Source: Dehalococcoidia bacterium (GTDB taxonomy: Bacteria > Chloroflexota > Dehalococcoidia > UBA2979). Taken from it: a stretch of DNA of 64,000 bases. The stretch is from the NCBI GenBank assembly GCA_964291495.2, contig OZ219871.1, positions 608,001 to 672,000 of the forward strand, in the 5' to 3' direction. Of this stretch, positions 21,921-57,621 are shown in pieces. Both the position numbers and the translations under genes were made by a program. Every line of letters begins with the position of its first letter. Position 1 is the stretch's first letter. The notes under the pieces were generated by a model, which saw only the letters and a list, made by a program, of their open reading frames with translations, made no database searches and had not been told where the DNA came from.

Positions 21921-21983
21921 TTGACAGTCAATGCCACTTTCGCGTACACAGGCCGTGACAGCGGCAAGAGCGAGCGCTCACTC
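21921..21983 (+). promoter_or_regulatory. Promoter TTGACA-N18-TACACA plus palindromic operator GAGCGAGCGCTCACTC (21968-21983)
   Basis: Read directly; the same architecture recurs at 8 other intergenic regions. Confidence 0.75.
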
Positions 21984-22039
21984 CTCGCGCGTGGGCGGGC
22001 GCTCGGCTGGTATCGCGGCGACTGGTACGGGGGTTTCAC

Positions 22040-23269
22040 ATGAGGTTCGGCATCTTCTACGAGCTGGCGGTTCCGAAACCATGGACTCCCGAGAGCGAAC
22101 TCGAGGTCTACCAGACCTCACTCGAGCAGGTGCGGCTCGCCGACGAGCTCGGGTTCGACTCCGTGTGGGCCGTCGAGCATCACTTCCTCGAGGAGTACTC
22201 GCACTGCTCTGCCTCGGATGTCTTCCTCACGGCGTGCGCCGCGCAGACGAAGAATATCCGCATCGGCTTCGGCATTCGCCTGCTGCTCCCGCCGTTCAAC
22301 CACCCGGTCCGCACGGCGGAGACGGCGGCCGCGATCGACCTGATCAGCAACGGGCGCCTCGAGTTCGGCACCGGCCGCTCCCAGACCTGGAACGAGCTGG
22401 GCGGCTTCCTCTGCGACCCCGACGACACCAAGGACATGTGGGCCGAGGCGGTCGAGGCGATCCCGAAGATGTGGAAGGAAGAGTACTTCTCCTGGGACGG
22501 CAAGTACTTCAACGTGCCGCCCCGCAACGTCCTCCCGAAGCCCCTGCAGAAGCCGCACCCGCCGATGTGGGTCGCGGTCAGCAGTCCCGAGACTGCCATC
22601 CAGGCGGGCGAGCGGGGCCTCGGAATGCTCGGCGTCAGCGGCGCCGCGCCCGAGGAGCAGGCGAAGCGGATCAACACCTACCGGGAGCTCGTCAGGAACT
22701 GCGAGCCGGTCGGCGACTTCGTGAACGAGCGGGTGGGGACGCTGAACTGGCTCCACTGCTCCGAGGATCCGGACGAGGCGGCGATGTACGGCCAGCAGCT
22801 GGTGCAGGGATTCAACCAGCTGAACGCGCACTTCGTCGCGATCCGGCAGGTCTACCCCACGCGCGTCTACCGCGCGCCAGGTGGCGGCGCCCGGGCGCGG
22901 CGCGACCGGCGAGGGGCCGCCTCCCAGCGCGCCGAGGCAGCGAAGCGGCCGGCAGGGGGCGGACTCGCCTCGGCGAGCCAGGCGGGCACGTTCCGCCGGG
23001 ACGACCTGGCGATCGGCACGCCCGACCAGATCATCAAGAACATGAAGCGCTGGGAGGAGATGGGCGTCGACCTCGTGACCTGTCTCGTCAGCGTCGGCAC
23101 GCTCGTGCCGCAGGAGAAGATCCTGAAGTCCCTCAAGCTCTTCGCGGAAGAGGTGATCCCGGCCTTCGACAAGGGCGAAGACGAGCCGAAGCCGTACGAC
23201 CCCCGGGCCCGGGCGGCGACGAACGGCCGGTCGGGGAGCAAGGCGAAGAAGGCCGCCGCGGCATCGTAA
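22040..23269 (+). CDS. LLM-class flavin-dependent oxidoreductase
   Basis: MRFGIFYEL, ADELGFDSVWAVEHH, GRLEFGTGR, PKPLQKPHPPMW. Confidence 0.93.
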   Translation: MRFGIFYELAVPKPWTPESELEVYQTSLEQVRLADELGFDSVWAVEHHFLEEYSHCSASDVFLTACAAQTKNIRIGFGIRLLLPPFNHPVRTAETAAAIDLISNGRLEFGTGRSQTWNELGGFLCDPDDTKDMWAEAVEAIPKMWKEEYFSWDGKYFNVPPRNVLPKPLQKPHPPMWVAVSSPETAIQAGERGLGMLGVSGAAPEEQAKRINTYRELVRNCEPVGDFVNERVGTLNWLHCSEDPDEAAMYGQQLVQGFNQLNAHFVAIRQVYPTRVYRAPGGGARARRDRRGAASQRAEAAKRPAGGGLASASQAGTFRRDDLAIGTPDQIIKNMKRWEEMGVDLVTCLVSVGTLVPQEKILKSLKLFAEEVIPAFDKGEDEPKPYDPRARAATNGRSGSKAKKAAAAS

Positions 23270-23305
23270 GGGCGATCGCGAGGACGCTGGAGGAAGGAGC
23301 CCGCA

Positions 23306-24049
23306 ATGCCTGAGTACGGGCGGTTTGGCGTCGACAAGCTCCCGTTCACGACGCCATTCCTGGCGCCGCTCTACCCCGCGCCTCCCTGGATGCTCGAGGA
23401 CAGCGAAATCCTCCTGATGAGCTACGAGATCGACAAGGATCTCGCGGAGAGTTCGCTGCCGCCGGCACTCTCGCGCTCGTACCCGCCGTACGGGCACATC
23501 ATGGTCTCGTACTACCCCTCGAGCCCGGTCGGGCCGTTCGGCCAGGCGACGCAGATGATCGTCTGCCGCTGGCGGACCACCGCGCGCGCGTTCCCGCTCT
23601 TCACCATCGTCAGCACGGAGGCGGCCTGTGCGGCCTTCCGCGAGTTCTGGGCCTTCCCGGCGAAGCTCGGCGAGGTGACGCTGGAACGAAACGGCGATAC
23701 TGTCAGCGCCTCAATCGGGCGAAACGGCGATGTGCTCGCGAGCGTGCGGATGACGGACCTGGAAGAGGTCACCGCCGGCGAGATGCGCTACGACCCGATG
23801 ATGAACGCGCGCGTGGTGCGCGCCGCCCGGGAGGAAGACGACCCGCCCGTCCTCGAACTGGATCAGATCGACCCCGACTACACGTACAAGCAGACGTGGC
23901 GCGGCCAGGGCGCGGTCGAGTTCCCGGCGGCGAGCGAGGCCGACCCGTGGCACCTGATGCAGAACCGTAACCACATCGCCACGACGTTCGCCGTCTGTGA
24001 CACGCAGCTCGGTTTCGCGCGCTACGTCGTCTCGTTCGACGAGCCCTGA
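23306..24049 (+). CDS. Acetoacetate decarboxylase-like fold protein
   Basis: PLYPAPPW, SPVGPF, REFWAFPAKLG, WRGQGAVEF...DPW; AAGGAG RBS. Confidence 0.8.
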   Translation: MPEYGRFGVDKLPFTTPFLAPLYPAPPWMLEDSEILLMSYEIDKDLAESSLPPALSRSYPPYGHIMVSYYPSSPVGPFGQATQMIVCRWRTTARAFPLFTIVSTEAACAAFREFWAFPAKLGEVTLERNGDTVSASIGRNGDVLASVRMTDLEEVTAGEMRYDPMMNARVVRAAREEDDPPVLELDQIDPDYTYKQTWRGQGAVEFPAASEADPWHLMQNRNHIATTFAVCDTQLGFARYVVSFDEP

Positions 24050-24090
24050 TCACGATTCGCCCGGCGGAGGCTCGATCGCGAGTGCCTGCG

Positions 24091-24196
24091 GAGACCTTCG
24101 CGTAACCCTCTCCTCGGGGCAGCGAGCGCATCCCCTCCGGTCCCCTCCCCAGGGGGAGGGGCCGGAGCGGGCTTGTGGGAGTTTCGCAAGGGTCTC
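24091..24196. mobile_element. 106-bp MITE-like element with imperfect TIRs and 5-bp CTGCG target duplication
   Basis: Left end GAGACCTTCGCGTAACCC, right end reverse complement GAGACCCTTGCGAAACTC; CTGCG at 24086-24090 and 24197-24201; related copy at 30757. Confidence 0.7.
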
Positions 24197-24208: not shown

Positions 24209-24865
24209 CTAGTCGTTCAGGTGGTCGAGTCCGCGCCGCAGCAGCGTGAACGCCTCGTCCAGCAGGTCGGCCGGGCGGTCCACGCCCCCGGCGTAGAGCC
24301 ACCGCCTGCGCATCGCGCGAATCGAGCCGACCACGGCGCCGGCGGCCAGCTGCGCGCGGGGGTCGTCCGGCTGTAGTCCGTACTCCTCGGCGATGACCGG
24401 CGCGAGGATGTCCTCGCGCTGCGCGTCGAGGGCAGCCATGCGCGCCGACAGCGCCGGGACCTCGAGCAGGAGCCTGCCGACGCGCACGTCGTAGTGCGGG
24501 TGCTCGTAACCCATGACGCGCAGCACGTCGCGCGAAGCGCGCCGCACGCGATCGACCAGGGTCTCGCCCGGAAACCGGGTCGCCAGTGACTCGCGGTAGG
24601 TCTCCGTGAGCTCGTCGCTGTCGAAGAAGATCACGTCTTCCTTGGACCTGAAGTAGCGGAAGTAGGTGCGCTCGGAGACACCGGCCTCGCTGGCGATCTC
24701 CTCGACGGTCGTCTCGTCGTAGCCGCGCTCCGAGAAGAGGCGGATGGCCGCCCGCGCCAGCCCCTCGCGCGTCCGCAGCTTCTTCTGCTCGCGCAGCGAG
24801 GCGGGCTTCGGCGTTCGCTTCCCGCCTCTCGGCGGGTCCGCTGTCTCGAGATGAGGTGATGGCAT
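24209..24865 (-). CDS. TetR/AcrR family transcriptional regulator
   Basis: LREQKKLRTREGLARAAIRLFSERGYDETTVEEIASEAGVSERTYFRYFRSKEDV. Confidence 0.93.
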   Translation of the reverse strand: MPSPHLETADPPRGGKRTPKPASLREQKKLRTREGLARAAIRLFSERGYDETTVEEIASEAGVSERTYFRYFRSKEDVIFFDSDELTETYRESLATRFPGETLVDRVRRASRDVLRVMGYEHPHYDVRVGRLLLEVPALSARMAALDAQREDILAPVIAEEYGLQPDDPRAQLAAGAVVGSIRAMRRRWLYAGGVDRPADLLDEAFTLLRRGLDHLND

Positions 24866-24962
24866 CACGCTCTCCAGGCGCGTGGCGAGGCTGCTCGCTA
24901 GAATCTTGTCACCCGCTGTCAAGTTTGGCAACACGCCGGGGCCGCGCGCCCGGCCCCTTCGC

Positions 24963-25023
24963 TTGACACCGGCGCCGAGGGTCGGGTACACGGTGGCGCA
25001 AGCGCGCGAGCGAGCGCTCACTC
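24963..25023 (+). promoter_or_regulatory. Promoter TTGACA-N18-TACACG plus operator GAGCGAGCGCTCACTC (25008-25023)
   Basis: Operator identical to the one at 21968. Confidence 0.75.
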
Positions 25024-25050
25024 CTGTCGCGGCGGGTCAAGGAGGGTCCG

Positions 25051-26244
25051 ATGAGTCCGACCGGCCAGATCCTGGCTGACCTCAAGGTCATCGACCTGAC
25101 CACGAACGTGGCCGGACCGGTCGCAGCGCGCCTGTTCGGCGAGCTGGGCGCCGATGTGGTTCATGTCGAGCCGCCGCACGGAGACGACGGCCGCAACTCA
25201 ACGACGGCGTTCCTCGGACGTGAAGGCGTATTCCACTCCGTTGGGAACCGCAACAAGCGCGGCGTTGTGATCGACCTCAAGACACCACGCGGGTGCGAGG
25301 TCATGAAGAGCCTGCTCCAGCAGGCGGACTTCTTCGTCGAGAACATGACGAAGGGCACCCTCGATGACCTCGGGCTGGGCTGGGACACGCTGCACGCACT
25401 CAACCCGCGGCTGATCCAGATCTCAATCACCGGCTGGGGTCAGAGCGGCCCGCTCGCGTACGAGCCGGGGTACGACGTCCTCGTGCAGGCCTTCACGGGC
25501 GCCGTGCGGTCGGAGAACGGCGAGTTCCGCGCGCTGGGCGGGCTCCGCGGTGACCCGACGGCGCCGCTGCTGGGCGCCTTCGCCGCGATGGGCGCGCTCT
25601 ACGAGCGGGAACGAACCGGCAAAGGGGCGCTGGTCACCAGTTCCGTGCTGCAGGGCGCCGTCCACATGGCGGGCGCCGGCATGGTGATCGCGCACGACGA
25701 ACCCCCGAAGGAGGAGAACGGCCGTGGCCCGGTCGGCGGCCTCGGAGGGCTCGGCCCGTTCTGGGCAGCCGACGGGAAGGGCGTCTTCCTCTGCGCCTGG
25801 AACGACCGCCAGTTCGTCGATCTCTGCGACCTCGCGGGCTTCCCCGAGGTCGGCGCCGATCCGGCGTACGCCACCCGCTTCCTGAGGTCGGGAGAGAGCG
25901 GCGCGAGGCTGAACGCCCTCTTCGGAGAGTGGGTCGCCTCCAAGAATCGCGACGAGATCGTCGAGGAGATGCGCGCGCGGCGCATCCCCGTCTCGCCGGT
26001 CAATCAAACCCTCGACGAGCTGCAGGACGATCCGCACATCCTCGACAACGACCTGATCACCTCGCTCGATCATCCGACGAAGGGCCGCCTGAGCATGATC
26101 GGGGCGATGTACGAGATCGACGGGGACGGCCCGCAGTACCGGCCGGCCCCGCTGCTGGGCGAGCACACGGACGACGTGCTCGGGGACTACGGCTTCTCGC
26201 CGGAGCAGATCAGCGAGTTGCGGGAGTGCGGCGCGGTCGCCTGA
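25051..26244 (+). CDS. Family III CoA-transferase
   Basis: DLKVIDLTTNVAGP, LGADVVHVEPP, NRNKRGVVIDLK, APLLGEHT; AAGGAGG RBS. Confidence 0.92.
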   Translation: MSPTGQILADLKVIDLTTNVAGPVAARLFGELGADVVHVEPPHGDDGRNSTTAFLGREGVFHSVGNRNKRGVVIDLKTPRGCEVMKSLLQQADFFVENMTKGTLDDLGLGWDTLHALNPRLIQISITGWGQSGPLAYEPGYDVLVQAFTGAVRSENGEFRALGGLRGDPTAPLLGAFAAMGALYERERTGKGALVTSSVLQGAVHMAGAGMVIAHDEPPKEENGRGPVGGLGGLGPFWAADGKGVFLCAWNDRQFVDLCDLAGFPEVGADPAYATRFLRSGESGARLNALFGEWVASKNRDEIVEEMRARRIPVSPVNQTLDELQDDPHILDNDLITSLDHPTKGRLSMIGAMYEIDGDGPQYRPAPLLGEHTDDVLGDYGFSPEQISELRECGAVA

Positions 26245-26331
26245 GCGAGCGCGCCCGGCGTGCAGCCCGGACCGTTCGTAGCCGGCCTGTGATGCCCGGC
26301 CTCGCCCGTGACCGGACCTGGAGTGGCGACG

Positions 26332-28092
26332 ATGCCCGAGGTTGAGCCCGCGCGGCCGCGGCGACCGCGCCGCGTGCTCGTCGAGAAGAGCGTCACGGTC
26401 CCGCTCCGCGACGGGGTCAGAACCTACGGAGACCTCTACCGTCCCCTCGGGATCGGGCCCGTGCCGGCAGTGGTCTCTCGCACTCCGTACAACAAGGAGG
26501 TCGCCGGCCAGGGCGGTGGCGGCCTCTCCCCCCTCAAGTCCGCGGAACGTGGCTACGCGGTGCTCGTCGTCGACACGCGGGGTCGCGCCTCCTCGGAGGG
26601 CGAGTTCCGTCCGTTCGAGACCGAAGGCCCGGACGGCTACGACACGGTGGAGTGGGCGGCGGCGCAGCCATGGTGCGACGGGAACGTCGCGCTCCACGGC
26701 GGCTCCTACGGGGGTGTGACCGCCCTGCTGGGCGCGCGCGAGCGGCCACCCTCGCTTCGCTGCGTGGTCGCGACCAGCACCGGCGACGACTACTACGACG
26801 GCTGGATCTTCAGCGGCGGAGCCTTCCAGCTCGGGTTCGCGGCCACCTGGACGATGACCCTCGCCTCGACGAGCCTGATCCTGCGACCCGACTACGCTCG
26901 GCAGGTGACCGCCGAGCAGCAGGCGGAGCTGCGCCGCACCATCGCCGCCGGCCTCGAACCGCTGTGGACGCGGCCGCTCTCGGCGCTGGCGGGCATCTCG
27001 GCCGCGAACGTCGCGCCGTGGTGGGCGAGCTGGCTGGAGCACGAGCGGCGCGACGGCTACTGGGCGGACCTGAGCCCCAGCGGGCACTACGACTCGTTCG
27101 AGGTGCCCGTCCTGCACGTCGGCGGCTGGTTCGACGTCTTCGGAACGGGTGCGGTGCGGAACTACCAGGGCATCAGCGCCGCCGGCCGGACCGATCAGCT
27201 GCTGGTGGTCGGTCCCTGGGCGCACACCGAGTCCGGTCCCGCCCTGGGGGAGATGACGTTCGGACGCTCCGGAGCGCGAGAGGCGGCCGACATCGTCGGC
27301 GAGACCAACCGCTTCCTCGAGCGGCACCTGCGGCCGGGCAGGGAGGCCGCCCCCGCGAACGCCACCCCGGTGCGCTACTTCCTCATGGGCGCGAACGAGT
27401 GGCGGCTGGACAGCTCGTGGCCGCCCGCCGAGGCGCGCCCGAGGCGGCTCTACCTCGCGAGCGGCGGGAAGGCCAACACCCTGCACGGCGACGGCGCCCT
27501 GGTCGAGGCACCCCCAACAGAGGGGGCGGCCTCCGATCGCTACGTCTACGACCCGGACCAGCCCGTCGAGACCCACGGCGGCCCGATCGTCCACATGGCG
27601 ATCGGGCCGGCGGGCCCGCGCGATCAGCGTGAGATCGAGGCACGGGACGATGTGCTGTGCTACACGACGGCGCCGCTGGAGCAGCCCGTGACGATCGCGG
27701 GCCTCGTCCGCGCCAGCCTCTGGGCGGTGTCGGACTGCCCGGACACCGACTGGACGGCGAAGCTGGTCGAGGTGCTGCCGGACGGGCGCGCGGTAGGCAT
27801 CTGCGACGGGGTGATCCGCGCGCGCTTCCGGAACTCGCTGGAGGAGCCGCAGTTGCTCGAGCCGGGCAGGCCCGAGCGGTACGAGATCACGCTCGGCCAT
27901 CTGGCGCACCGCTTCGCGGCCGGTCATCGGGTGCGCCTCGAGATCTCAAGCTCGAACTTTCCGCGATTCGATCGGAACCCGAACACCGGCGAGCCGCTGG
28001 GCAGCGCCTCGACGGCGAGGATCGCCACGCAACACGTGCTCCACGACGAGTCGCACCACTCGTACCTCGAGTTCGACGCGCTGGCGGAGTAG
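26332..28092 (+). CDS. CocE/NonD family hydrolase
   Basis: PLRDGV, RTPYNK, DTRGRASSEG, GGSYGG, GGWFD, GPWAH, SSSNFPRFDRNPN. Confidence 0.92.
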   Translation: MPEVEPARPRRPRRVLVEKSVTVPLRDGVRTYGDLYRPLGIGPVPAVVSRTPYNKEVAGQGGGGLSPLKSAERGYAVLVVDTRGRASSEGEFRPFETEGPDGYDTVEWAAAQPWCDGNVALHGGSYGGVTALLGARERPPSLRCVVATSTGDDYYDGWIFSGGAFQLGFAATWTMTLASTSLILRPDYARQVTAEQQAELRRTIAAGLEPLWTRPLSALAGISAANVAPWWASWLEHERRDGYWADLSPSGHYDSFEVPVLHVGGWFDVFGTGAVRNYQGISAAGRTDQLLVVGPWAHTESGPALGEMTFGRSGAREAADIVGETNRFLERHLRPGREAAPANATPVRYFLMGANEWRLDSSWPPAEARPRRLYLASGGKANTLHGDGALVEAPPTEGAASDRYVYDPDQPVETHGGPIVHMAIGPAGPRDQREIEARDDVLCYTTAPLEQPVTIAGLVRASLWAVSDCPDTDWTAKLVEVLPDGRAVGICDGVIRARFRNSLEEPQLLEPGRPERYEITLGHLAHRFAAGHRVRLEISSSNFPRFDRNPNTGEPLGSASTARIATQHVLHDESHHSYLEFDALAE

Positions 28093-28120: not shown

Positions 28121-28184
28121 TTGACAGGGGAATCACGCCTTTGGTATCAAGAGGCCCCTCCCGCGAGCGAGCGAGTGCTCGCTT
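28121..28184 (+). promoter_or_regulatory. Promoter TTGACA-N18-TATCAA plus operator GAGCGAGTGCTCGCTT (28169-28184)
   Basis: Read directly. Confidence 0.72.
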
Positions 28185-28289: not shown

Positions 28290-29048
28290 ATGGCAGAGCG
28301 AGAGCCCCTCGACGTTATTGACGCGATCTTCTCGACCCCGGCAATGCGCTACCTGAAGACCGATCCGATCCCCGACGAGATCATCTGGGCGATCCTCGAC
28401 GCTGCGATCCGGGCTCCCAGCGGGACGAACACCCAGCGCTGGGGCTGGATGGTCGTCCGCGACCAGGAGACGAAGAACGAGATCGCGAAGATCTACCGGG
28501 ACACCTGGGCCCGCGCGAACCGCATCGTGGGTCATGGCCCCGAGCGAACTCGCGACGAGGAGTTCACGGCGAACAAGAAGGTGGAGTTCGGCGCCGCGAA
28601 CTACAACTCCGTCGAGCACCTCGCCGACCACTTCGAGTACGCGCCGGTGCTGATTGTCCCCTTCATGATCCAGAGCGGGCTGCGACCGGGCGACGACCCC
28701 GACGCGGACCCCGTGGTCAGGCCGTTCCAGGGCAGTCCGCTCATGGGCGGCTCGATCTACCAGGCCGTCCAGAACATGCAGCTCGCGGCGCGCGCCTACG
28801 GCATCGGGAGCACCTACACGAGCGTGGCGAACACCGAGGAACACGAGCCGCGGATGAAGGAGTTGCTGGGGTTGCCCGTCAACACCCGCACGATGTGCAT
28901 CATCCCGCTCGGGTACCCGCTCGACGTCGATGAGCTGGCCGAGGTCGGCGCGAGCCCGGCCCGCGCCCGCTTCTTCAGGCCGAACCGCATCCCTGTCGAC
29001 GAGGTGACGCACTGGGATCGGTTCGGAGAGCAGATGGACCGCGAGTAG
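28290..29048 (+). CDS. Nitroreductase-family flavoprotein
   Basis: AMRYLKTDPIP, AAIRAPSGTNTQRW, SIYQAVQNMQLAARAYGIG, IPLGYP. Confidence 0.9.
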   Translation: MAEREPLDVIDAIFSTPAMRYLKTDPIPDEIIWAILDAAIRAPSGTNTQRWGWMVVRDQETKNEIAKIYRDTWARANRIVGHGPERTRDEEFTANKKVEFGAANYNSVEHLADHFEYAPVLIVPFMIQSGLRPGDDPDADPVVRPFQGSPLMGGSIYQAVQNMQLAARAYGIGSTYTSVANTEEHEPRMKELLGLPVNTRTMCIIPLGYPLDVDELAEVGASPARARFFRPNRIPVDEVTHWDRFGEQMDRE

Positions 29049-29214
29049 GCGGGATTCCCGGCGCGGACTGCGGCCGGCTTGCGGCCCCCGGCCGTGAGCG
29101 AACCGCGGTCCGCCCGTCATCGCCCACGGGCGCGCCGGCGCGCCGCAGCCCGTCGTGGGTCAGCCCGTTGAACATGCCGGGCTGCCCCGCGACGGGGGGA
29201 GCAAGGACATTCGC

Positions 29215-29910
29215 ATGGTGGACAGGGAGCCCCTCGACGTTCTCGAGGCGATTCACTCGACTCGCTCAATCCGGTTCCTCAAGCCGGACCCGATCCCGGA
29301 CGAGGTGATCTGGGCGATCCTCGATGCCGCGATCCGCGGGCCGAACGGGTCCAACATGCAGCGCTGGGGCTGGATCGTCGTCACGGATCCGGAGAAGAAG
29401 AAGAAGCTCGCGGACTTCTACCGGGACGGCTGGAACCTCGCGAATCGCGTCGACAAGCGAAGCCGCGAGGAGCGGTTCGCAATCGCGAGCACGAACCAGC
29501 TCGGTTACCAGGGCTACCTCGGTGTCGAGTACCTCGCCGACCACCTCGAGGACGCTCCGGTGTTCATCATTCCGGTGACGATCGGGGCGCGACCCAGCCT
29601 GCGGTCGGGGTCTTCGATTTACGGGGCCGTCCAGAACCTGCAACTCGCGGCGCGGGCGTTCGGCATCGGCACGACGTTCACGTCCGCACACGCGATCGAA
29701 GACCATGCCGAGGAGACGAGGGAGTTGCTCGGCCTGCCGGAGAACGCCGTCGACATGTGCCTGATTCCGCTCGGCTATCCGATGAGCGAAGAGGAGCTGG
29801 CGGCGGTGGGCGCGAGCCCGAACCAGGGCCGGTTCGGTGTCCCACGCCGCGTGCCGGTCGAGCAGGTGACGTACTGGGATTCCTGGGGCGAGCAGAAGGC
29901 GCGGACATGA
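29215..29910 (+). CDS. Nitroreductase-family flavoprotein (tandem paralog)
   Basis: RSIRFLKPDPIP, AAIRGPNGSNMQRW, SIYGAVQNLQLAARAFGIG, IPLGYP. Confidence 0.9.
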   Translation: MVDREPLDVLEAIHSTRSIRFLKPDPIPDEVIWAILDAAIRGPNGSNMQRWGWIVVTDPEKKKKLADFYRDGWNLANRVDKRSREERFAIASTNQLGYQGYLGVEYLADHLEDAPVFIIPVTIGARPSLRSGSSIYGAVQNLQLAARAFGIGTTFTSAHAIEDHAEETRELLGLPENAVDMCLIPLGYPMSEEELAAVGASPNQGRFGVPRRVPVEQVTYWDSWGEQKART

Positions 29911-30109: not shown

Positions 30110-30661
30110 TCAGTCGAGCAGCCCCATGTCCCGCAACTCGGAGAGGCCCGCGAGGACCTCGGCGTGTCGCACCCACCCCCGCAACATCTCGGGCGTCGTC
30201 CCGAACTCCGGGGCGATCGCGACGATCGCCGCCCACTGCGACTGGCGCCGCGGCTCCTGATCGAAGACCTCACGGACGGCCTGCTCGCGAGTCTCCGCCG
30301 GGTAGCTGCGTCCTCGCGTCACCGCACCATCCTCGAGGTCAGTCCGCTCGATGTGGATGAAGTCGAAGCCGGCGCTCGAGGCGGTCCAGCGGTCGACGGG
30401 CGAGTCGCCGATGTGCAGGTAGTGAGCGGCGCGGAACGTCTCGCGCAGCGACTCCAGGTGCTGTTTGAGCACGGCGAAGTGCACCGGCACCCCGTGCCGC
30501 CTCCAGAGCTCCTGCTGCGAGTGGAGCGGGCGGTCGGAGCAGCTGCCGACGACGAAGCCCAGGCGGAGGGCGCGGCGTACCGCCTCCAGCGGGAGCAGTC
30601 CCGGAGGATCGCCGATCTCGAGCGTGCCATCGATGTCGAAGCTGATCAGCCGAGCCGTCAT
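30110..30661 (-). CDS. HAD-like hydrolase fused to an IS3-family OrfA-like HTH
   Basis: N-terminal ISFDIDGTL and HIGDSPVD; C-terminal YPAETREQAVR...SQWAAIVAIAPEFGTTPEMLRGWVR. Confidence 0.75.
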   Translation of the reverse strand: MTARLISFDIDGTLEIGDPPGLLPLEAVRRALRLGFVVGSCSDRPLHSQQELWRRHGVPVHFAVLKQHLESLRETFRAAHYLHIGDSPVDRWTASSAGFDFIHIERTDLEDGAVTRGRSYPAETREQAVREVFDQEPRRQSQWAAIVAIAPEFGTTPEMLRGWVRHAEVLAGLSELRDMGLLD

Positions 30662-30756
30662 GCCCGAGGTTCCCGCCCGCGCAAGTCTTCACCATCGCTC
30701 GCGGGCGTCGCAAGCCCGAGGCGCCGGCCGCTTGCACCGCTGATGCAGGGCCAGCG

Positions 30757-30954
30757 GAGACCTTCGCGCAACCCTCTCCTCGGGGCAGCGAGCGCATCCC
30801 CTCCGGTCCCCTCTCCCCGAGGGAGAGGGTCAGGGTGAGGGAGGATCCGACCTCTGGAGTTTCGTTGCGCCGTCGGTACTTTCGAAGGGGCGCGGGAGTC
30901 CTCCCCCTCACCCCCGCCCTCTCCCCAGGGAGAGGGGGCCGGATCGGCCTTGCG
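30757..30954. repeat. Longer copy of the 24091 element with two CCCTCTCCC/GGGAGAGGG REP-like hairpins forming a large inverted repeat
   Basis: First ~57 nt match 24091 except for one base; arms gggagagggtcagggtgagggagga and tcctccccctcacccccgccctctccc; no intact right TIR. Confidence 0.75.
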
Positions 30955-35435: not shown

Positions 35436-35490
35436 GAGCGAGCACTCGCTTACCCTCGTGTTCGTACACGGCGTGAGGCCGGCCTGTCAA
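35436..35490 (-). promoter_or_regulatory. Promoter TTGACA-N18-TACGAA plus operator AAGCGAGTGCTCGCTC (35436-35451)
   Basis: Read directly on the minus strand. Confidence 0.72.
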
Positions 35491-36855: not shown

Positions 36856-36878
36856 TCGTTGGAAGCGGGGAGGCACCC

Positions 36879-38060: not shown

Positions 38061-38121
38061 TTGACGGGATCATACGGTCGTTGCTAGGTTAGCGACAAGT
38101 GAGCGATCGCTCGCTTGTCGC
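38061..38121 (+). promoter_or_regulatory. Promoter TTGACG-N18-TAGGTT plus 30-bp palindromic operator GCGACAAGTGAGCGATCGCTCGCTTGTCGC (38092-38121)
   Basis: 14 of 15 pairs symmetric; lies between the divergent TetR and LLM genes. Confidence 0.8.
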
Positions 38122-42925: not shown

Positions 42926-42926
42926 G

Positions 42927-44218: not shown

Positions 44219-44259
44219 GGGCAAGCGCTCACTTACCATACGCTTCGCCGGGTCGTCAA
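44219..44259 (-). promoter_or_regulatory. Promoter TTGACG-N18-TAAGTG with overlapping operator AAGTGAGCGCTTGCCC (44219-44234)
   Basis: Read directly on the minus strand. Confidence 0.68.
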
Positions 44260-46112: not shown

Positions 46113-46140
46113 CACCCTTCCCCTCGCGCGGTCGCCGGAC

Positions 46141-47254: not shown

Positions 47255-47294
47255 CACAGCGGGGCGAGCAGGCTCAGGTGCTCGCCCCGCTGTG
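47255..47294 (-). terminator. Perfect 16-bp stem-loop just downstream of the substrate-binding protein gene
   Basis: CACAGCGGGGCGAGCA-ggctcagg-TGCTCGCCCCGCTGTG. Confidence 0.65.
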
Positions 47295-47314
47295 TCGATG
47301 GCCTGACCCGTTGG

Positions 47315-49305: not shown

Positions 49306-49368
49306 TAGCGAGCGCCCGCTATATGCGCGCGCGTGGTATGCCTACCACCCACGCGGTAAGGGTGTCAA
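49306..49368 (-). promoter_or_regulatory. Promoter TTGACA-N18-TAGGCA plus operator TAGCGGGCGCTCGCTA (49306-49321)
   Basis: Read directly on the minus strand. Confidence 0.68.
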
Positions 49369-51170: not shown

Positions 51171-51226
51171 TTGACATCGCCGGGCCGCCCATAGTAAACG
51201 TGGTCAACCTGAACGCCCGCTCAGTT
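51171..51226 (+). promoter_or_regulatory. Promoter TTGACA-N18-TAAACG plus degenerate operator ACCTGAACGCCCGCTCAGTT
   Basis: Same promoter geometry; weaker palindrome. Confidence 0.55.
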
Positions 51227-51332: not shown

Positions 51333-52559
51333 ATGGCGGATCAGCGACTCGCAGTTGTCGGCATCGGCGGCACTCCCTACGGCAACGCCGAGGGCTACCC
51401 GGTGACCAGCCTGCACGTGGAGGCGGCGAAGCGGGCGATGGACGACGCCGGCCTCAGCAAGCGCGACATCGACGGCCTCATCGTGTGCGACCACAGCCCG
51501 GACGTGAAGACGGCCTACCGCACCGCCGAGCACATGGGCATGGCCACCTGGCCGAAGCAGTTCCTGACGGCGGTGACCAACGGCGGCGTCGCCGCCGCGA
51601 TGGCCAACGATCTGGCGGCCCACGCCCTCAGGAGCGGCGAGGCCACCAACGTGCTCATCGTGGGCGGCGGGTCCGGGCGCGTGCGCCGCCAGGCGCAGGC
51701 GTCCCTAGCTCCCACGACCCCGGCCCAGTCCTATGTCGAGCGGGTCGCGGGACGCGGCCAGGAGACGATGTCCCTCGAGTTCGACGTGCCCTATGGCCCG
51801 TTCGGCGTCATCTCCTTCTACGCGCTGGCGGCCCAGCGCCACATGTACGAGTACGGCACGACCTCCGAGCAGATGGCGGCCGTCTCGGTGGCCTGTCGCA
51901 AGCACGCCTACATGAACCCCCGGGCCATGAAGCGAGAGCCGATCACGATCGATGACGTGATCAACTCGCCCTACATCTGCGAGCCGTTCCACCTGCTCGA
52001 CTGCTGCCTGCCCGCGGGCGGATCGGACGCCTACATCGTCACGACCGAGGACCGCGCGAGGGATCTGCGGCACCCGCCGATCTGGATGGACGGCATCGGG
52101 CACGCCCACTCGGCCTACCACACCGGGCTGCTCTGCACCCGCTCCGACTACGGGTTCGACATGATCCGGCAGGTGGGCAAGGTGGCGGGCGAACGCGCCT
52201 TCGCCCAGGCCGGGATCGAGCCCAAGGACGTCGACCTCGTGCAGCTGTACGACAGCTTCACCATGACCGTGCTGATGCAGCTCGAGGACTTCGGCTTCGC
52301 GCCCAAGGGCGAGGGCGGCCCCTTCGCCGAGGGCGGCCGCCTCGAGCTTGGAGGCGAGCTCCCGCTCAACACCAACGGCGGCATGCTCTCCATGGGTCAG
52401 TCCGGCGTGGGCTCCACGGTGATGTTCATGAACGAGGCCGTGGCGCAGCTGCGAGGAGACTGCGGCGAGCTGCAGGTCGCCGACGCCAAACACGCGCTGG
52501 TGGGCAGCGTCTCGGGCACCATGAGCAACTACGGCGCCACGATCTTCGCCGCCGACTGA
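51333..52559 (+). CDS. Thiolase-fold protein (no nucleophilic Cys)
   Basis: LAVVGIGGT, TNGGVAA, FHLLDCC, YDSFT, LNTNGGMLSMG; GGAGG RBS. Confidence 0.88.
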   Translation: MADQRLAVVGIGGTPYGNAEGYPVTSLHVEAAKRAMDDAGLSKRDIDGLIVCDHSPDVKTAYRTAEHMGMATWPKQFLTAVTNGGVAAAMANDLAAHALRSGEATNVLIVGGGSGRVRRQAQASLAPTTPAQSYVERVAGRGQETMSLEFDVPYGPFGVISFYALAAQRHMYEYGTTSEQMAAVSVACRKHAYMNPRAMKREPITIDDVINSPYICEPFHLLDCCLPAGGSDAYIVTTEDRARDLRHPPIWMDGIGHAHSAYHTGLLCTRSDYGFDMIRQVGKVAGERAFAQAGIEPKDVDLVQLYDSFTMTVLMQLEDFGFAPKGEGGPFAEGGRLELGGELPLNTNGGMLSMGQSGVGSTVMFMNEAVAQLRGDCGELQVADAKHALVGSVSGTMSNYGATIFAAD

Positions 52560-52614: not shown

Positions 52615-53061
52615 ATGGCGACCGACAGCGACGCAGGATCCGCCGAGTACCGCAGAGAGATCCCGATCCCCAGCCCCGTCTCGCAGCCCTACTGGGATGC
52701 CTGCCGGCGGCATGAACTGAGAGGGCAGCGCTGCCGCACGTGCAACTGGCTCTGGATGTATCCGAGCCGCATGTGCCACAACCCGGACTGCAACACCCTG
52801 GACGACTACGACTGGGAGCAACTGGCCGGGACCGGCACGGTCTGGACCTTCACCGTCAACCATCGCGCCCCCAACGCCGAGTGGGAGGACGACCTGCCCT
52901 ACGTCTTCGGAGTGATCGAGCTGGACGAGGGCGTCATGATCACCAGCAACGTGATCGGCTGCGACCCGAGCGAGGTGCACATCGGCATGCCCGTGGAGGT
53001 GGTCTTCGAGGACGTCTCCGACGAGATCTCCCTGCCGAAGTTCAGGCCGCGCTCGACCTGA
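52615..53061 (+). CDS. DUF35 Zn-ribbon/OB-fold protein
   Basis: PYWDA, CRTC...CHNPDC, PYVFGVIELDEG, IGMPVEVVF. Confidence 0.92.
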   Translation: MATDSDAGSAEYRREIPIPSPVSQPYWDACRRHELRGQRCRTCNWLWMYPSRMCHNPDCNTLDDYDWEQLAGTGTVWTFTVNHRAPNAEWEDDLPYVFGVIELDEGVMITSNVIGCDPSEVHIGMPVEVVFEDVSDEISLPKFRPRST

Positions 53062-53101
53062 CGCCGCGCGGACGGGACTGGGTAGGCCGGGCTGGGCGGC
53101 G

Positions 53102-54325
53102 CTAGTCGCGCTGCAGAATCGTGCACCCGAAGTTGGAGGCCACGCCCGAGGCGCCTCCGATGCAGACCATCGGCTTCTCCGCGGCCTGCCGCTCGCCCGC
53201 CTCGCCGCGCGCCTGCGAGATACCCTCGTACATTACCGCGAGGGTCCCGTTGCCCGACTGACCTTCCGAGAGCAGGCCGCCGTGCGTGTTGAGCGGCAAC
53301 TCGCCCCCGAGCTCGATGCGCCCGCCCTCGACGAAGGGACCGCCCTCGCCCTTCCCGCAGAAGCCGAAGTCCTCGATCGCCAGCAGGGCCGTGGTCGTGA
53401 AGCTGTCGTAGACCTGCAGACAGTCGATGTCGCTGCGCGAGACGCCGGCCTCGCCGAAGGCCTGGTCCCCGGCCATCTTGCCGACCGTCCGCACGATGTC
53501 GAAGCCCTCCGGAGACGGCGTACAGAGGTTGCCGACGTGGTAGTAGGACATGCCGTGCCCGGCCCCGAGGATCCAGACCGGAGGCTTTGGGCTGTCGTGC
53601 GCTCGCTCCTCCGAAGTCACGATGTAGGCGGTGGCAAAGCCGGGGGCGATGTAGGCGCAGTCGAGCAGGTGGTGCGGCCAGCTGATCCAGCGCGAGGTCA
53701 TGACATCCTCGATTGTGATCGGGTCGCGCAGGCAGGCGCGCTCGTTCATCGTCGCGTGCTTGCGGCAGGCCACGGCGATGGCCGCCAGTTGCTCGCTCGT
53801 GGTCCCGAACTCGTACATGTGCCTGGCCGCCACCGGGGCGTATATCGAATAGGCCCCACCCGTCCCGTAGGGCATCTCCCAGTCGTACGGGTGGGGGCTG
53901 CGCATCGACTCCCGGTAGGGCCGGACGGCGGCGCCGAAGGTGCGGCCGCGTCCGATGTAGTTTTCGCGGCCCCTGCCGCCGTCGAGCACCATCACGTAGT
54001 TGGCGAGGCCCTGCTCCAGATACCAGCGGGCCTGGTTGTTGGCGTAGCCGCTGCTCATCCCGCCGGTGTGCGGCAGGTCGATGACCTTCGCGTAGTTCCC
54101 GAAGCCCAGGTACTCGGCGAAGCGGTACTGCAACCTGGGGTCGGACCCGAATCCGGCCACCTGCGTGGTGATGATGCCGTCGATGTCGCTCTTCCGGAGG
54201 CCGGCGTCCTCGATAGCCGTCCTGGCTGCCCGGGCCAGCAGTTCGGGGACGGTGTGTCCTTCGACGTTGAAGCCGGTGGTCCGGGCCGCACCGACGATCG
54301 CCGCCTGTCTCGACAAGTTCGCCAT
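53102..54325 (-). CDS. Thiolase-fold protein (close paralog of 42927-44150)
   Basis: Long identical stretches shared with 42927-44150, e.g. QVAGFGSDPRLQYRFAEYLGFG. Confidence 0.9.
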   Translation of the reverse strand: MANLSRQAAIVGAARTTGFNVEGHTVPELLARAARTAIEDAGLRKSDIDGIITTQVAGFGSDPRLQYRFAEYLGFGNYAKVIDLPHTGGMSSGYANNQARWYLEQGLANYVMVLDGGRGRENYIGRGRTFGAAVRPYRESMRSPHPYDWEMPYGTGGAYSIYAPVAARHMYEFGTTSEQLAAIAVACRKHATMNERACLRDPITIEDVMTSRWISWPHHLLDCAYIAPGFATAYIVTSEERAHDSPKPPVWILGAGHGMSYYHVGNLCTPSPEGFDIVRTVGKMAGDQAFGEAGVSRSDIDCLQVYDSFTTTALLAIEDFGFCGKGEGGPFVEGGRIELGGELPLNTHGGLLSEGQSGNGTLAVMYEGISQARGEAGERQAAEKPMVCIGGASGVASNFGCTILQRD

Positions 54326-54373
54326 TGGTCTCCTCCGGTGGTGTGGGTCGCCGGTACGCGTGGCCGGGACAGG

Positions 54374-55648
54374 CTAGGCCACGGCGCCCGCTTCCCTGAG
54401 CGCCCCGATCTCGTCGTCGGAGAGACCCGCTTCGCGCAGGATCTCCTCGGTGTGCCGCCCCAGGACCGGAGCCGGGCCGGCGGGCCCCACGGCGGCCGCT
54501 GACATCTCGAAGATCCCGCTGAGCTGGCGCTGCGGGCCGGTCAGTTCGTCCTCGACCTCCACCATCAACTCGGCGGCCTGCGGGTCGTCGGCGACCTCCG
54601 CGGGCAGGAGCACGCGCGAGACCGGTACGCCGGCATCGAGCAGCTCGCTCAGGATCTCGTTCACGGTGCGGCGGCCGACCGCCTCGGCGATCGCCTGCCG
54701 GATTCCGAGGGAGCGCGCATGCACGGTCGGGTCGAGCGGATTGAAACCGGCGGCGTCGCCCCCGTCGTCCGGGATGCTCAGTACCTGGCGTGTCGCCGCG
54801 CGCATCCCCGGCGTGTACGCGCCGATGAAGACCGGTCCGTCCTTCGCCATGTATCCGCCCAGGAAGGGCCCGAAGATCGCCGCGAGGCTGGCCCGGGTCG
54901 CCTTGTAGCCGCGCAGCACGGAGCTGTAGTCGTCGCCCGCGGCGAAGCGCTCGTGCGCCTCCTCCAGGCTGTGGCCTTGCAGCACCGAATCGCTGACGGG
55001 CTCCTGCATGACCAGGCCGCCGATCATCACGATCGCGGACCGCAGCGAGGCCACGTCGACGAGCTGGCCCTCGCCGGACCGGGCGCGGTGGTAGAGCGCC
55101 GAGTTGACCCCGATGACCGCGGAGAGCCCGGTCGCGGCATCGATCGTCCCGCCGTGCGTGCCCATTGGCGCGCCGAACTCGTCGACGACGCCGAGCTCGG
55201 CCATGTAGCCGGAGTACGCCTGGGCGGCCAGGTCGGGCAGGGGCTCGTCCGCGCGCGGCCCGTGCCTCCCGAAGCCCGAGATCTGGACGTAGATCAGGTC
55301 CGGCCGCAGTCGCGAGAGGGTCTCGTAGTCGAGCTCCCGCTCGCGGACCGCAACCGGCCCAAGGTTGATGACGACGACGTCGAACGACGGGACGATGCGG
55401 TGGATCAGGGCGCGCCCCCGCGGGTCGTCGAGGTTCACGACCAGGCTGTGCTTGCCCCGGTTCAGGAACTGGAAGTCCTTGCTCGACCCGGCGGCCCCGT
55501 TCTCGCCACGTCGCATCGCGTCGCCGCCCGGAGGCTCGACCTTGACCACCTCCGCGCCGAGGTCCGCGAGCGTGCTGCCCGCCAGCGGTCCGGCGACGAC
55601 CTCGGAAAACTCGAGCACGCGCACGCCGTGGAGGGGACCTGGCGCCAT
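54374..55648 (-). CDS. Family III CoA-transferase (close paralog of 39394-40728)
   Basis: MAPGPLHGVRVLEFS, PMGTHGGTIDA, EDELTGPQRQL shared with the 39394 gene. Confidence 0.92.
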   Translation of the reverse strand: MAPGPLHGVRVLEFSEVVAGPLAGSTLADLGAEVVKVEPPGGDAMRRGENGAAGSSKDFQFLNRGKHSLVVNLDDPRGRALIHRIVPSFDVVVINLGPVAVRERELDYETLSRLRPDLIYVQISGFGRHGPRADEPLPDLAAQAYSGYMAELGVVDEFGAPMGTHGGTIDAATGLSAVIGVNSALYHRARSGEGQLVDVASLRSAIVMIGGLVMQEPVSDSVLQGHSLEEAHERFAAGDDYSSVLRGYKATRASLAAIFGPFLGGYMAKDGPVFIGAYTPGMRAATRQVLSIPDDGGDAAGFNPLDPTVHARSLGIRQAIAEAVGRRTVNEILSELLDAGVPVSRVLLPAEVADDPQAAELMVEVEDELTGPQRQLSGIFEMSAAAVGPAGPAPVLGRHTEEILREAGLSDDEIGALREAGAVA

Positions 55649-55843
55649 GGTCGGCTCCCCCTTGCTAGCGGCGCCGTCCGCCGGGCGGCGGCGAATTCCA
55701 CGCTCGAGTCGCCACCAGGAATCTATCGAGGCAGCGCTCGCTCGCCAACCCAACCCGCGTCACCGGAGGTCAGGCCGGTTCCGCCGACGAGGCCGCGGGC
55801 CCAGCCTGCGTCGGCAGCACGGTGGATGCCCGGACCGAAGTGA

Positions 55844-57514
55844 CTAGAACGCGACCGTCTGCTGGTACTCGCCGAAGGCGCGCCGCATCACGCCCATGAT
55901 CTCGCCGAGCGTGGCGTAGGCGTTCACCGCGTCGAGGAGGCTCGGCATCACGTTGGTGTGCGGGTCGGCGCAGGCCTGCTCGAGCGCCCGCAGCGTGTCC
56001 GCGACCTGCTGCTGGTCGCGCTCGGCTCGCACGCGGTTGAGCCGCGTCATGTGGCGCTCGAAGCTCTCCTCGTTGATGCGGATCGTGGGCACCCCCGTGT
56101 CGTCGTCCATCAGGTACTCGTTCACGCCCACGATGACGCGCTCGCGCGCCTCGATCTCCTGCTGGTAGCGCCAGGCCGCCTCGGCGATCTCGCGGTGGAA
56201 GAACCCGGTTTCGAGGGCGCTGACGACGCCGCCGAGGTCGTCGATCTTGTCGAAGTAGCGGAGGCACTCGCGCTCCATCTCGTCGGTCAGCGCCTCGACG
56301 AAGTAGCTGCCGCCGAGCGGATCGACGGTGTTGGTGGCGCCGGACTCGTGGAGGAGCACCTGCTGGGTGCGGAGGGCGAGGCGGGCTGCCTCGTCGGAGG
56401 GCAGCGCGAGCGCCTCGTCCAGGGAGTTCGTGTGCAGGCTCTGCGTCCCGCCGAGCGCGGCCGCGAGCGACTGCACGGTCGAGCGCACGATGTTCACCTC
56501 GGGCTGCTGCTTGGTAAGCGAGCAGCCGGCGGTCTGCGCGTGGAAGCGCATCCAGAGGCTGCGCTCGTTCTTCGCGCCGAAGCGCTCCTTCATCACCCGC
56601 GACCAGATCCGGCGGGCCGCGCGCAGCTTCGCAATCTCCTCGAAGAAGTCGTTGTGGATGTTGAAGAAGAACGAGATGCGAGGCGCGATCGCGTCCACAT
56701 CGAGGCCGCGGTCGACGCACCACTGGACGTACTCGATCCCGTCCCGCAGCGTGAACGCCAGCTCCTGCGCCGCCGTCGAACCCGCTTCGCGGATGTGGTA
56801 GCCGGAGACGGAGATGCTGTTCCACTTCGGCATCTGCTCGCTGGCGAACTCGATGGTGTCGACCACCAGGCGCATCGAGGGTTCCGGCGGGAAGACGAAC
56901 TCGTTCTGGGCGATGTACTCCTTGAGGATGTCGTTCTGCAGCGTGCCGCCGAGCTCGCTGCGCGGTACGCCCGCCTTCTCCGCCGTCGCGATGTACATCG
57001 CCCAGATCACGGGCGCTGGCGAGTTGATCGTCATTGAGGTGGTGATCTGGTCGAGGGCGATCCCGTCGAACAGCACCTCCATGTCGGCGAGCGAGGACAC
57101 GCCGACGCCGCAGTGGCCGAACTCTCCCGCCGCCCACTCGTCGTCCGCGTCGTAGCCCATCAGCGTCGGCATGTCGAAGGCGACGGAGAGCCCCGTCTCG
57201 CCATGATCGAGCAGGTAGCGGTAACGCTCGTTGGTCTCCTCGGCGGAGCCGAACCCGGCGAACATGCGGATCGTCCAGGGCTTGCCGCGGTAGCCGGTGG
57301 GGTGGATGCCGCGTGTGAACGGATACTCGCCGGGGTTGCCGAGATCCTCGCTGTAGCTCAAGTCCGGGATGTCGACGGGGCTGTAGAGGCGCTCGACCGG
57401 GTGACTCGATGTCGTCATGAACGGGCCGGGAAGCTCGCGCCCGCTCGTGCGGACGCGCTCCTCGTACTCCGCCCGGCGTGACGCGAGCTCCTCCGGCGAG
57501 TCGACATCAGGCAC
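55844..57514 (-). CDS. Methylmalonyl-CoA mutase family large (substrate-binding) subunit with isobutyryl-CoA-mutase-type signature
   Basis: [60 protein letters not shown]; no DxHxxG B12 domain. Confidence 0.92.
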
Positions 57515-57572
57515 TGCTCAGCTCCATTCGATGCTGCGTGATGTTGCCCCGGCGGACGGCTGCCGGGCCGCC

Positions 57573-57621
57573 GAGTGAGCGTCCGCTCGTGATTCTCGGC
57601 GGGCCCGTTGGAGTGTGTCAA
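57573..57621 (-). promoter_or_regulatory. Promoter TTGACA-N18-GAGAAT plus operator GAGCGGACGCTCACTC (57573-57588)
   Basis: Read directly on the minus strand, upstream of the mutase gene. Confidence 0.65.

Follow-up and report, generated by a model that had tools for sequence, protein, structure and literature searches.

A 16-bp palindrome with the consensus GAGYGAGC-GCTCRCTC recurs at promoters in a 64,000-nt stretch of the genome of a Dehalococcoidia bacterium (NCBI GenBank assembly GCA_964291495.2, contig OZ219871.1, positions 608,001 to 672,000 of the forward strand; hereafter the window, numbered from its first nucleotide). We consider it probable that the palindrome is the DNA operator of TetR-B, one of two TetR-family proteins encoded there, and that TetR-B switches a 36-kb catabolic gene island. 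The sites, their promoter positions, their conservation and their co-occurrence with TetR-B orthologues are observed; that TetR-B binds and represses, which class of effector it senses and in which direction it responds are our inferences. A promoter with a predicted operator is found at eight transcription units, comprising about 19–23 genes. The regulon is real and apparently undescribed. Among the literature searched (largely open-access, main texts), the motif strings matched only lac-operator and SlmA papers, no account of this operator or TetR regulon was found for SAR202 or these bacteria, and the stem "regulat" is absent from the main text of the SAR202 genome paper (PMC5395668). The mechanism, a TetR repressor on a palindromic operator, would be conventional.

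The eight strong sites and two weaker candidates are listed below, with scores in bits from a symmetric position weight matrix (PWM) for most of them.

Operator 1, 21968..21983, GAGCGAGCGCTCACTC, 24.2 bits: 17 nt past the -10 of TTGACA (21921-21926)-18 nt-TACACA (21945-21950); predicted targets, on the plus strand, a luciferase-like monooxygenase (LLM) gene, 22040-23269, and an acetoacetate-decarboxylase-like (ADC-like) gene, 23306-24049.
Operator 2, 25008..25023, GAGCGAGCGCTCACTC: 15 nt past the -10 of TTGACA (24963)-18 nt-TACACG; predicted targets, on the plus strand, a coenzyme A (CoA)-transferase gene, 25051-26244, and a CocE hydrolase gene, 26308-28092.
Operator 3, 28169..28184, GAGCGAGTGCTCGCTT, 22.9 bits: 18 nt past the -10 of TTGACA (28121)-18 nt-TATCAA; predicted targets, on the plus strand, the nitroreductase-family genes 28290-29048 and 29155-29910.
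Operator 4, 35436..35451, GAGCGAGCACTCGCTT: 9 nt past the -10 of the minus-strand TTGACA (35490)-18 nt-TACGAA; predicted targets, on the minus strand, CoA-transferase 34078-35283, LLM 32729-34036 and CocE 30966-32654.
Operator 5, 38097..38116, the 20-bp AAGTGAGCGATCGCTCGCTT, made of overlapping 16-mers at 38097 and 38101: 6-10 nt past the -10 of the plus-strand promoter TTGACG (38061)-18 nt-TAGGTT for LLM 38256-39377, and overlapping the -35 (38098-38093) of the TetR-B promoter, TTGTCG-18 nt-TATGAT.
Operator 6, 44219..44234, GGGCAAGCGCTCACTT, 16.9 bits: overlapping the -10 TAAGTG (44235-44230) of the minus-strand promoter TTGACG (44259); predicted targets, on the minus strand, two thiolase-like/DUF35 pairs (42927-44150, 42497-42925, 41260-42480, 40841-41257) and, probably, CoA-transferase 39394-40755.
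Operator 7, 49306..49321, TAGCGAGCGCCCGCTA, 18.6 bits: 17 nt past the -10 of the minus-strand TTGACA (49368)-18 nt-TAGGCA; predicted targets, on the minus strand, the SBP_bac_5 gene 47315-49183 and the permease genes 46141-47109 and 45213-46190.
Operator 8, 57573..57588, GAGTGAGCGTCCGCTC, 17.9 bits: 3 nt past the -10 of the minus-strand TTGACA (57621)-18 nt-GAGAAT; predicted target, on the minus strand, the acyl-CoA mutase large subunit gene 55844-57514, with CoA-transferase 54374-55648 and thiolase-like 53102-54325 (minus strand) possibly under it as well.
Degenerate candidate, 51207..51222, ACCTGAACGCCCGCTC: 6 nt past the -10 of TTGACA (51171)-18 nt-TAAACG, upstream of thiolase-like 51333-52559 and DUF35 52615-53061.
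Borderline candidate, 55728..55743, GAGGCAGCGCTCGCTC, 13.9 bits, level with the best coding match: between the mutase gene and CoA-transferase 54374-55648.

All ten 16-mers quoted in an earlier reading of the sequence alone (the original prediction) lie exactly at the coordinates given there, and every one is intergenic with our best-guess gene starts. Nine intergenic operators had been counted; eight are strong, whereas 51207, like 55728, is weak. Site 51207 is absent from the 30 best positions under the window PWM and reaches 11.1 bits under an external one, so that the PWM scores do not support it as a full ninth site, and we kept it as a degenerate candidate because of its promoter context. 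Both weaker sites are uncertain as operators.

With up to three mismatches, the degenerate consensus matches the window 52 times, against 22.7 ± 5.0 in 100 dinucleotide shuffles (maximum 36; none of the 100 reaches 52), and zero-mismatch matches occur at three loci. The top intergenic word in an unbiased 8-mer count was AGCGAGCG, present in 10 intergenic regions and 10.3-fold enriched (11 in 6,411 intergenic positions versus 9 in 56,947 coding positions). Within the window, this word is rarer in coding than in intergenic sequence, and the consensus is rarer after shuffling. Scanned with the symmetric PWM, the eight strong sites score 16.9–24.2 bits, above all other positions, and all eight are intergenic; the best coding match reaches 13.8 bits (position 1871), and the best score in simulated windows had a mean of 14.6 and a maximum of 22.7. 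Matches of at least 12 bits are intergenic in 9 of 10 cases (P = 1.4e-8, a conservative value since the intergenic total used was too large). A match at 4519 was rejected as intergenic, as it lies inside the thiolase gene 3292-4577. Since the window PWM was trained on the same sites that it scores, we ran two controls. In a leave-one-out scan, five of the eight sites were unbeaten, and 44219, 49306 and 57573 were beaten by 3, 5 and 1 positions, respectively; with the external PWM, built from five sites in distant loci only, seven of the eight window sites took ranks 1–7 and 44219 ranked 11th. Taken together, the shuffles, the 8-mer enrichment, the PWM scans and these controls rule out a chance origin of the palindromes.

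Repressors are known to act on the -10, at the start of transcription or shortly downstream of it. The window holds 39 TTGAC(A/G) hexamers, of which 10 are intergenic, and no intergenic one lies outside 21.9–57.6 kb in the window. Eight of these ten are followed after 18 nt by a -10-like hexamer and then, 0–19 nt further on, by a strong operator (21921, 24963, 28121 and 38061 on the plus strand; 57621, 49368, 44259 and 35490 on the minus strand), which bears out for all eight strong sites the claim that they sit at or just past a -10. Seven of the -10-like hexamers begin with TA and the eighth is GAGAAT. The ninth intergenic TTGACA (51171) precedes the degenerate 51207, and the tenth (24922, TTGACA, before TetR-A) is not followed by an operator. 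No sequence is shared among the promoter spacers, and these are therefore independent promoters rather than copies of one cassette. A strict sigma-70 scan retained only two promoter-like sites in 21.8–58.1 kb, both abutting operators: TTGTCG-18-TATGAT at 38098..38069, which is the TetR-B promoter with its -35 overlapping the operator, and TTGACA-18-GAGAAT at 57621..57592. As a class, the nine intergenic promoters combine a near-perfect -35 with a fixed 18-nt spacer, and most of their -10 hexamers lack the final T (TACACA, TACACG, TACGAA, TAAGTG, TAGGCA, TAAACG).

Several sites, lying 9–18 nt past the -10, would be transcribed, and a perfect GC-rich palindrome can fold; the palindromes could then be hairpins of 5′ untranslated regions, or copies of a small repeat or mobile element, rather than protein operators. 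We find this very improbable. The position of the site varies from the -35 (TetR-B promoter) through the -35/-10 spacer (in one relative, L012) and the -10 (44219) to about 18 nt past the -10, and the window contains no match to an Rfam family. What the sites have in common is limited to about 16 bp, with almost no information in the flanks. Of the direct-repeat families listed (the 20 largest of 27; at least 30 nt, 20–64 kb), none coincides with a site, though 16 bp by itself falls short of that length. This limited sharing, the unrelated spacers and the absence of a listed repeat family of at least 30 nt at the sites rule out a repeat or mobile-element origin.

Half-sites occur elsewhere in intergenic DNA. 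A 70-nt direct repeat, 94% identical, is found at 24081-24150, after the ADC-like gene, and at 30747-30816, between 30110-30661 and the CocE gene, and contains a AGCGAGCG half-site within CCTCTCCTCGGGGCAGCGAGCGCATCCCCTCCGG. Two TAGCGAGCG half-sites lie inverted and about 66 bp apart in 20392-20474, between an AddB-like gene and the unannotated gene 20610-21296; the right-hand one scores 11.6 bits and resembles the 49306 variant, and no TTGACA promoter is near.

Two genes of the window are candidates for encoding the protein that would bind the palindrome.

TetR-B, 37396-38025, minus strand: the proposed repressor, 209 amino acids, TetR_N and TetR_C_24 domains, recognition helix TMGTLYLYI.
TetR-A, 24209-24865, minus strand: MftR-like, TetR_C_14 domain (PF17754), helix 3 SERTYFRYF.

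The original prediction named TetR-B, and the co-occurrence of the motif with its orthologues, rather than binding, supports that choice. Using a profile of TetR-B relatives (alignment A1), the closest of which belong to Dehalococcoidia/Chloroflexota metagenome-assembled genomes, we collected 18 loci (L001–L018) from species-representative genomes. Each of the six close loci (L001–L006, TetRs 92–98% identical to TetR-B) has a site, scoring 20.6 bits or more, about 90 bp ahead of the TetR-B orthologue. Among the six distant Dehalococcoidia loci (L007–L012, 44–58% identity), four have a site at most 250 bp from the TetR gene, and five of the eight matches of at least 12 bits fall in the 3.0 of 90.7 kb that flank TetR genes (P = 2e-6). 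The site of L008 lies by promoter-like hexamers in the divergent region that precedes the TetR gene. In L009 it directly follows a -10-like TATGGA ahead of a 2-oxoacid:ferredoxin oxidoreductase/CoA-transferase/importer operon and also consists of two 16-bp repeats offset by 4 bp. It stands 2 nt past TTGACA-17-TAGCGT, ahead of an LLM/importer/hydrolase operon, in L011, and within the spacer after a TTGACA, ahead of an importer/LLM/hydrolase operon, in L012. The recognition helix reads MG(T/A)LYLYI or a near variant throughout L001–L012, including L007 and L010, which have no site near the TetR gene. It differs in L013–L016 where the helix-turn-helix aligns (SVGLIYRYV, SLPVTYHYI, SVPVTYQFV), and L013–L018, with TetRs of at most 40% identity or fragments, hold no match of at least 12 bits. 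L010 carries two TetR-B-type genes in tandem (1152-2503), and two protein clusters, P0004 and P0007, 92% and 89% identical to TetR-B, share one value for the length of their longest contig (2,456,249), a hint at paralogous copies in some genomes.

The palindrome might instead be the operator of another factor, either TetR-A or an unlinked regulator, for example of the LacI type. The zero-mismatch site 25008 lies in the divergent region between TetR-A and the CoA-transferase gene, GTGAGCGCTCAC occurs in lac-operator papers, the central 12 bp of the motif are what we take to be the core of the symmetric lac operator (a likeness at the DNA level only), and TetR-B homologues are present in L007 and L010 without a nearby site. 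However, site 25008 is placed for the plus-strand CoA-transferase promoter, and the candidate -35 of TetR-A (24922) is 86 bp off, with no site after it. Helix 3 of TetR-A is unlike the recognition helix of TetR-B, the motif adjoins TetR-B homologues in four distant loci, and no TetR_C_14 domain was found among the proteins scanned in L008, L009, L011 and L012. No further regulator gene, LacI-family or other, was seen among the 51 window proteins scanned, and a search of 24850-25060 for a distinct TetR-A operator returned only GC-rich short palindromes. TetR-A resembles MftR in its C-terminal domain (PF17754) and in its TIGR03968 match (1.8e-30), which at 106 bits against a cut-off of 224.9 leaves it short of an MftR equivalog, and no mycofactocin genes were seen in the window; the MftR operator consensus in the available text of PMC8728441, T-N2-GGCA-N5-TGCC-N2-A, is unrelated to this palindrome. 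We leave another factor a small chance. TetR-A is unlikely to be the binder; it may act separately, as a neighbor or second-tier regulator. Co-occurrence with the orthologues, the differences in the helix and the placement of 25008 lead us to assign the motif to TetR-B with moderate-to-good confidence.

The orthologous spacers of the close relatives were aligned around operator 5 (A2, seven sequences) and at two further operators (A3 and A4, six each, L002 being left out). The operator and the -35 and -10 hexamers form invariant blocks, and the remainder barely aligns between the window with L001–L003 on one side and L004–L006 on the other (92% TetR identity). Gene order also differs in L004–L006, where the thiolase/DUF35 pair is inverted and the LLM-ADC operon directly follows the CocE gene. 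The operators and promoter hexamers are thus conserved islands in spite of rearranged gene order, the outcome of the phylogenetic footprinting that had been suggested. At the TetR-B promoter (A2), AGYGAGC-N4-GCTCACT, that is, two overlapping 16-bp registers, is present in all seven sequences; A3 is the footprint at operator 4, and in A4 the 44219 16-mer is invariant in all six. Operator 3 is conserved in L001–L003, the 16-mer of operator 1 is also found upstream of the LLM-ADC pair in L004–L006, and the operator 7 region lies outside the relative loci compared. The inverted thiolase/DUF35 pair of L004–L006 stands directly downstream of TetR-B on the same strand (e.g., L004 10817-12647), and these loci have an extra site, GAGCGTGCGCTTGCTC (15.4 bits), near the start of an alpha/beta hydrolase gene (e.g., L004 2877).

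TetR-B itself is a TetR-family protein by its domains (PF00440, 6.6e-10, and TetR_C_24) and by its AlphaFold2 model, which has nine helices and a pLDDT of 91.9; 472 of 500 Foldseek matches have E ≤ 0.001, and all the top matches listed are TetR-family regulators. Its own gene carries an operator, 38097-38116, which overlaps the TetR-B -35 and is kept in seven of seven sequences, a co-occurrence rather than binding. The claim that this is the best site fails on score (22.0 versus 24.2 bits); it is instead the only double-register site. KstR2 and PfmR bind CoA thioesters. The best PDB sequence matches (phmmer) are 3dcf, AibR (5k7f), 3lwj, PfmR (3vpr) and KstR2, then the Bacillus FadRs, and the best fold matches (Foldseek) are AibR with isovaleryl-CoA, KstR2, PfmR and the FadRs of Bacillus, Clostridium and Sulfolobus. 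Every functionally characterized protein among the top matches is known to sense a CoA thioester. TetR-B Y53 aligns with AibR Tyr51, a base contact, in the HMMER alignment. W170 and K173 align with Trp169 and Lys172 of AibR, if its numbering carries the +3 offset suggested by Lys47/Tyr51; this helix 8 Trp/Lys pair holds pantothenate according to the available text of PMC5389471. In A1, W170 does not vary and K173 is conserved to at least 90%; the equivalents of AibR Lys131/132, E131/L132 in TetR-B, are not conserved. An acyl-CoA thioester is thus a plausible effector by analogy.

The sign of the response is a separate matter. With the same regulator and operator, TetR-B could follow the logic of AibR, binding only when loaded with a CoA thioester and serving end-product or feedback repression: AibR, the top structural and second-best sequence match, represses only when bound to isovaleryl-CoA, as described in the accessible part of PMC5389471. 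The targets look catabolic, however (importer, hydrolases, monooxygenases, CoA-transferases), and ligand binding releases regulators of the FadR, KstR2 and MftR types from genes of this kind, long-chain acyl-CoAs being the ligands of MftR (available texts of PMC5397183 and PMC8728441). TetR-B is only 24–26% identical to AibR. We give such a ligand-loaded repressor a modest chance and retain TetR-B as a repressor that would respond to a pathway intermediate.

We also weighed the points that speak against TetR-B as the switch of this island. The sites in the distant loci were found with the window PWM, the very matrix trained on the sites it scores, and the motif scans cover the 64-kb window and 18 relative loci, which limits any statement on genome-wide specificity. 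A similar gene cluster at 0.2–9 kb is free of sites. L007, whose TetR is 55% identical and has the recognition helix of L008, and L010 have no site of at least 12 bits near the TetR gene, and TetR-A, too, adjoins a perfect site (25008). TetR-B falls below the NCBIfam cut-offs for FadR, KstR and MftR (NF053878, 52.2 bits versus 200, for FadR; NF033703, 22.3 bits versus 280, for KstR); it forms a separate orthologue group. Finally, a close structural relative binds DNA only with its CoA ligand (AibR, PMC5389471, in the part available), which bears on the sign of the response.

Gene content was mapped from third-position GC and start-codon context and annotated with Pfam and NCBIfam (51 window proteins); the GC content is 66–76% across the whole window. 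The gene list originally given for 21.9–60 kb is borne out by this map, and the region contains the following.

Luciferase-like monooxygenases (LLMs): five.
Family III CoA-transferases: four.
CocE/NonD hydrolases: two; alpha/beta hydrolases: two.
Nitroreductase-family proteins: two; ADC-like protein: one.
Thiolase-like genes (PF22691; SCP-x-type): five, with four DUF35 genes (ChsH2-type OB/zinc-ribbon), mostly as adjacent pairs.
Family-5 binding protein with two permeases; one DUF3179 protein; two TetR genes.
Methylmalonyl-CoA-mutase-type large subunit: one, 556 amino acids.

As for the predicted targets, an operator does stand at the promoters of eight units (LLMs, CoA-transferases, CocE, nitroreductases, two thiolase/DUF35 pairs in one unit, importer and mutase), but membership of the 51333 thiolase operon is unsupported. 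The same holds for DUF3179, the alpha/beta hydrolases 44373 and 59259, LLM 57994 and the thiolase/DUF35 pair 35668-37337 (plus strand), which, divergent at operator 4, is a possible member. The importer, 45213-49183, consists of a binding protein and two permeases of the Opp/Dpp type, and no ATPase domain of an ATP-binding cassette (ABC) transporter was found among the 51 proteins scanned. No B12-binding subunit gene is adjacent to the mutase large subunit gene (55844-57514). A segmental duplication relates 39393-44150 to 53073-55650, with 80–86% DNA identity between the thiolase-like and CoA-transferase genes of one minus-strand operon and those of the other (direct-repeat families D1–D5). 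A second cluster of the same families occupies 175-9030 (three CoA-transferases, DUF35, thiolase 3292-4577, enoyl-CoA hydratase 4697-5461, LLM 5482-6669 and alcohol dehydrogenase) and has neither operator nor TTGACA promoter. Between the two catabolic clusters lies an AddA/AddB-like helicase-nuclease pair, 14139-20383, with UvrD helicase and PD-(D/E)XK domains.

TetR regulators dimerize. We hypothesize that dimers of TetR-B occupy the sites, which overlap the -10, the transcription start or the first transcribed stretch at eight or more TTGAC(A/G)-18-nt promoters in 21.9–57.6 kb, and that this would block RNA polymerase and hold the island shut. At the 20-bp double-register operator of its own gene, two offset TetR-B dimers may bind, as with Bacillus FadR; TetR-B would also restrict its own production. 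The DNA affinity of TetR-B would be altered, and the island switched, by an intermediate of the pathway, for which an acyl-CoA thioester is the most likely candidate. Judging from gene content, the pathway may run from import through flavin-dependent oxygenation, with the nitroreductase-like proteins as flavin reductases, to ester or lactone hydrolysis, CoA transfer, and thiolytic or retro-aldol cleavage together with mutase rearrangement. A scheme proposed from SAR202 gene content agrees with this pathway, as far as the available text of PMC5395668 goes.

Much of the interest lies in what such a switch would say about these organisms. Dehalococcoidia of this type are uncultured or barely cultured, and gene content has been the only ground for tying their large monooxygenase and CoA-transferase families to the degradation of recalcitrant organic matter. 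For about 20 genes of these families, the common operator supplies independent evidence of joint action. The repressor (209 amino acids) and a 20-bp duplex offer a handle for finding the inducer among CoA thioesters, and hence the substrate of the pathway, and the motif with its TTGACA-18-nt promoters would allow the regulon to be mapped in complete genomes of relatives. A wider reading joins all of this: TetR-B as the CoA-thioester-sensing master switch of a SAR202-type catabolic island, conserved across Dehalococcoidia, with an effector that names the substrate class and a recognition code common to FadR, SlmA and Chloroflexota. We put this forward tentatively, with more doubt than belief. 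If it were true, the expanded paralogue families (LLM/flavin mononucleotide monooxygenases, CaiB-type CoA-transferases, thiolase/DUF35, CocE esterases, nitroreductase-like flavin reductases, the mutase and the ABC importer) would be tied into a single pathway; one CoA-thioester-sensing repressor would serve that pathway, and the class of substrate could therefore be read from its effector. Bacillus FadR, E. coli SlmA and Chloroflexota would then have a single TetR recognition code in common, consisting of YGAG repeats in 4-bp phase.

Among known systems, TetR-B has its best neighbors, in structure as in sequence, in AibR (Myxococcus xanthus), KstR2 (Mycobacterium) and PfmR (Thermus). They differ in that identity is 21–26% and their operators are unrelated, that of AibR being ACCTACCGGTCGGTAGGT in the available text of PMC5389471.

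Of published sequences, the one closest to the motif at the DNA level is that bound by SlmA of E. coli, the SlmA-binding sequence (SBS). SlmA, a member of the TetR family, acts in nucleoid occlusion and binds, as a dimer of dimers, to sites scattered over the chromosome, whereas the sites here are at promoters. We considered a SlmA-like, chromosome-organizing TetR because the motif nearly equals that sequence: the SBS oligonucleotide AAGTAAGTGAGCGCTCACTTACGT contains AAGTGAGCGCTCACTT, the palindromized form of our motif (10.1101/264192, in the part available). This is a likeness of DNA only. The eight strong sites all belong to promoters of a single catabolic island, the folds most similar to TetR-B are those of acyl-CoA sensors, and the 55 PDB sequences that match TetR-B at E ≤ 1e-3 include none named SlmA; we can hardly credit a nucleoid-occlusion role for these sites.

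The closest parallel to TetR-B and its operator in architecture is FadR (YsiA) of Bacillus, which governs a multi-operon regulon of CoA-dependent catabolism. The B. halodurans operator, GATGAATGAAT*ACTCATTCAT, contains two 16-bp inverted repeats offset by 4 bp and is bound by two dimers; each monomer reads ATGA(A/G)T, the DNA contacts are Gly42/Thr43/Tyr45/Tyr47, and Gly42 and Tyr45 contact bases (available text of PMC5397183). Both operators have 4-bp-phased GAnn repeats in each half, ATGAATGAAT in FadR and GAGYGAGC here, with the same YGAG core. The IR1/IR2 dimer-of-dimers site of FadR resembles TetR-B's own 20-bp operator, with its two registers offset by 4 bp; the other window sites have at most a weak third GAGY repeat. 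In TetR-B, G50-T51-x-Y53-x-Y55 fits the four FadR contacts, as a pattern match rather than a residue-level alignment. Unlike FadR, TetR-B has a GC-rich operator, mostly single-register sites, and targets (LLMs, type III CoA-transferases, thiolase/DUF35, CocE and the mutase) that are not classical fad genes, and it is not a FadR orthologue. The original description of the palindrome as a GC-shifted FadR box does not extend to orthology, but in view of the shared 4-bp phasing, two registers, YGAG core and helix pattern, it is a fair account of the architecture.

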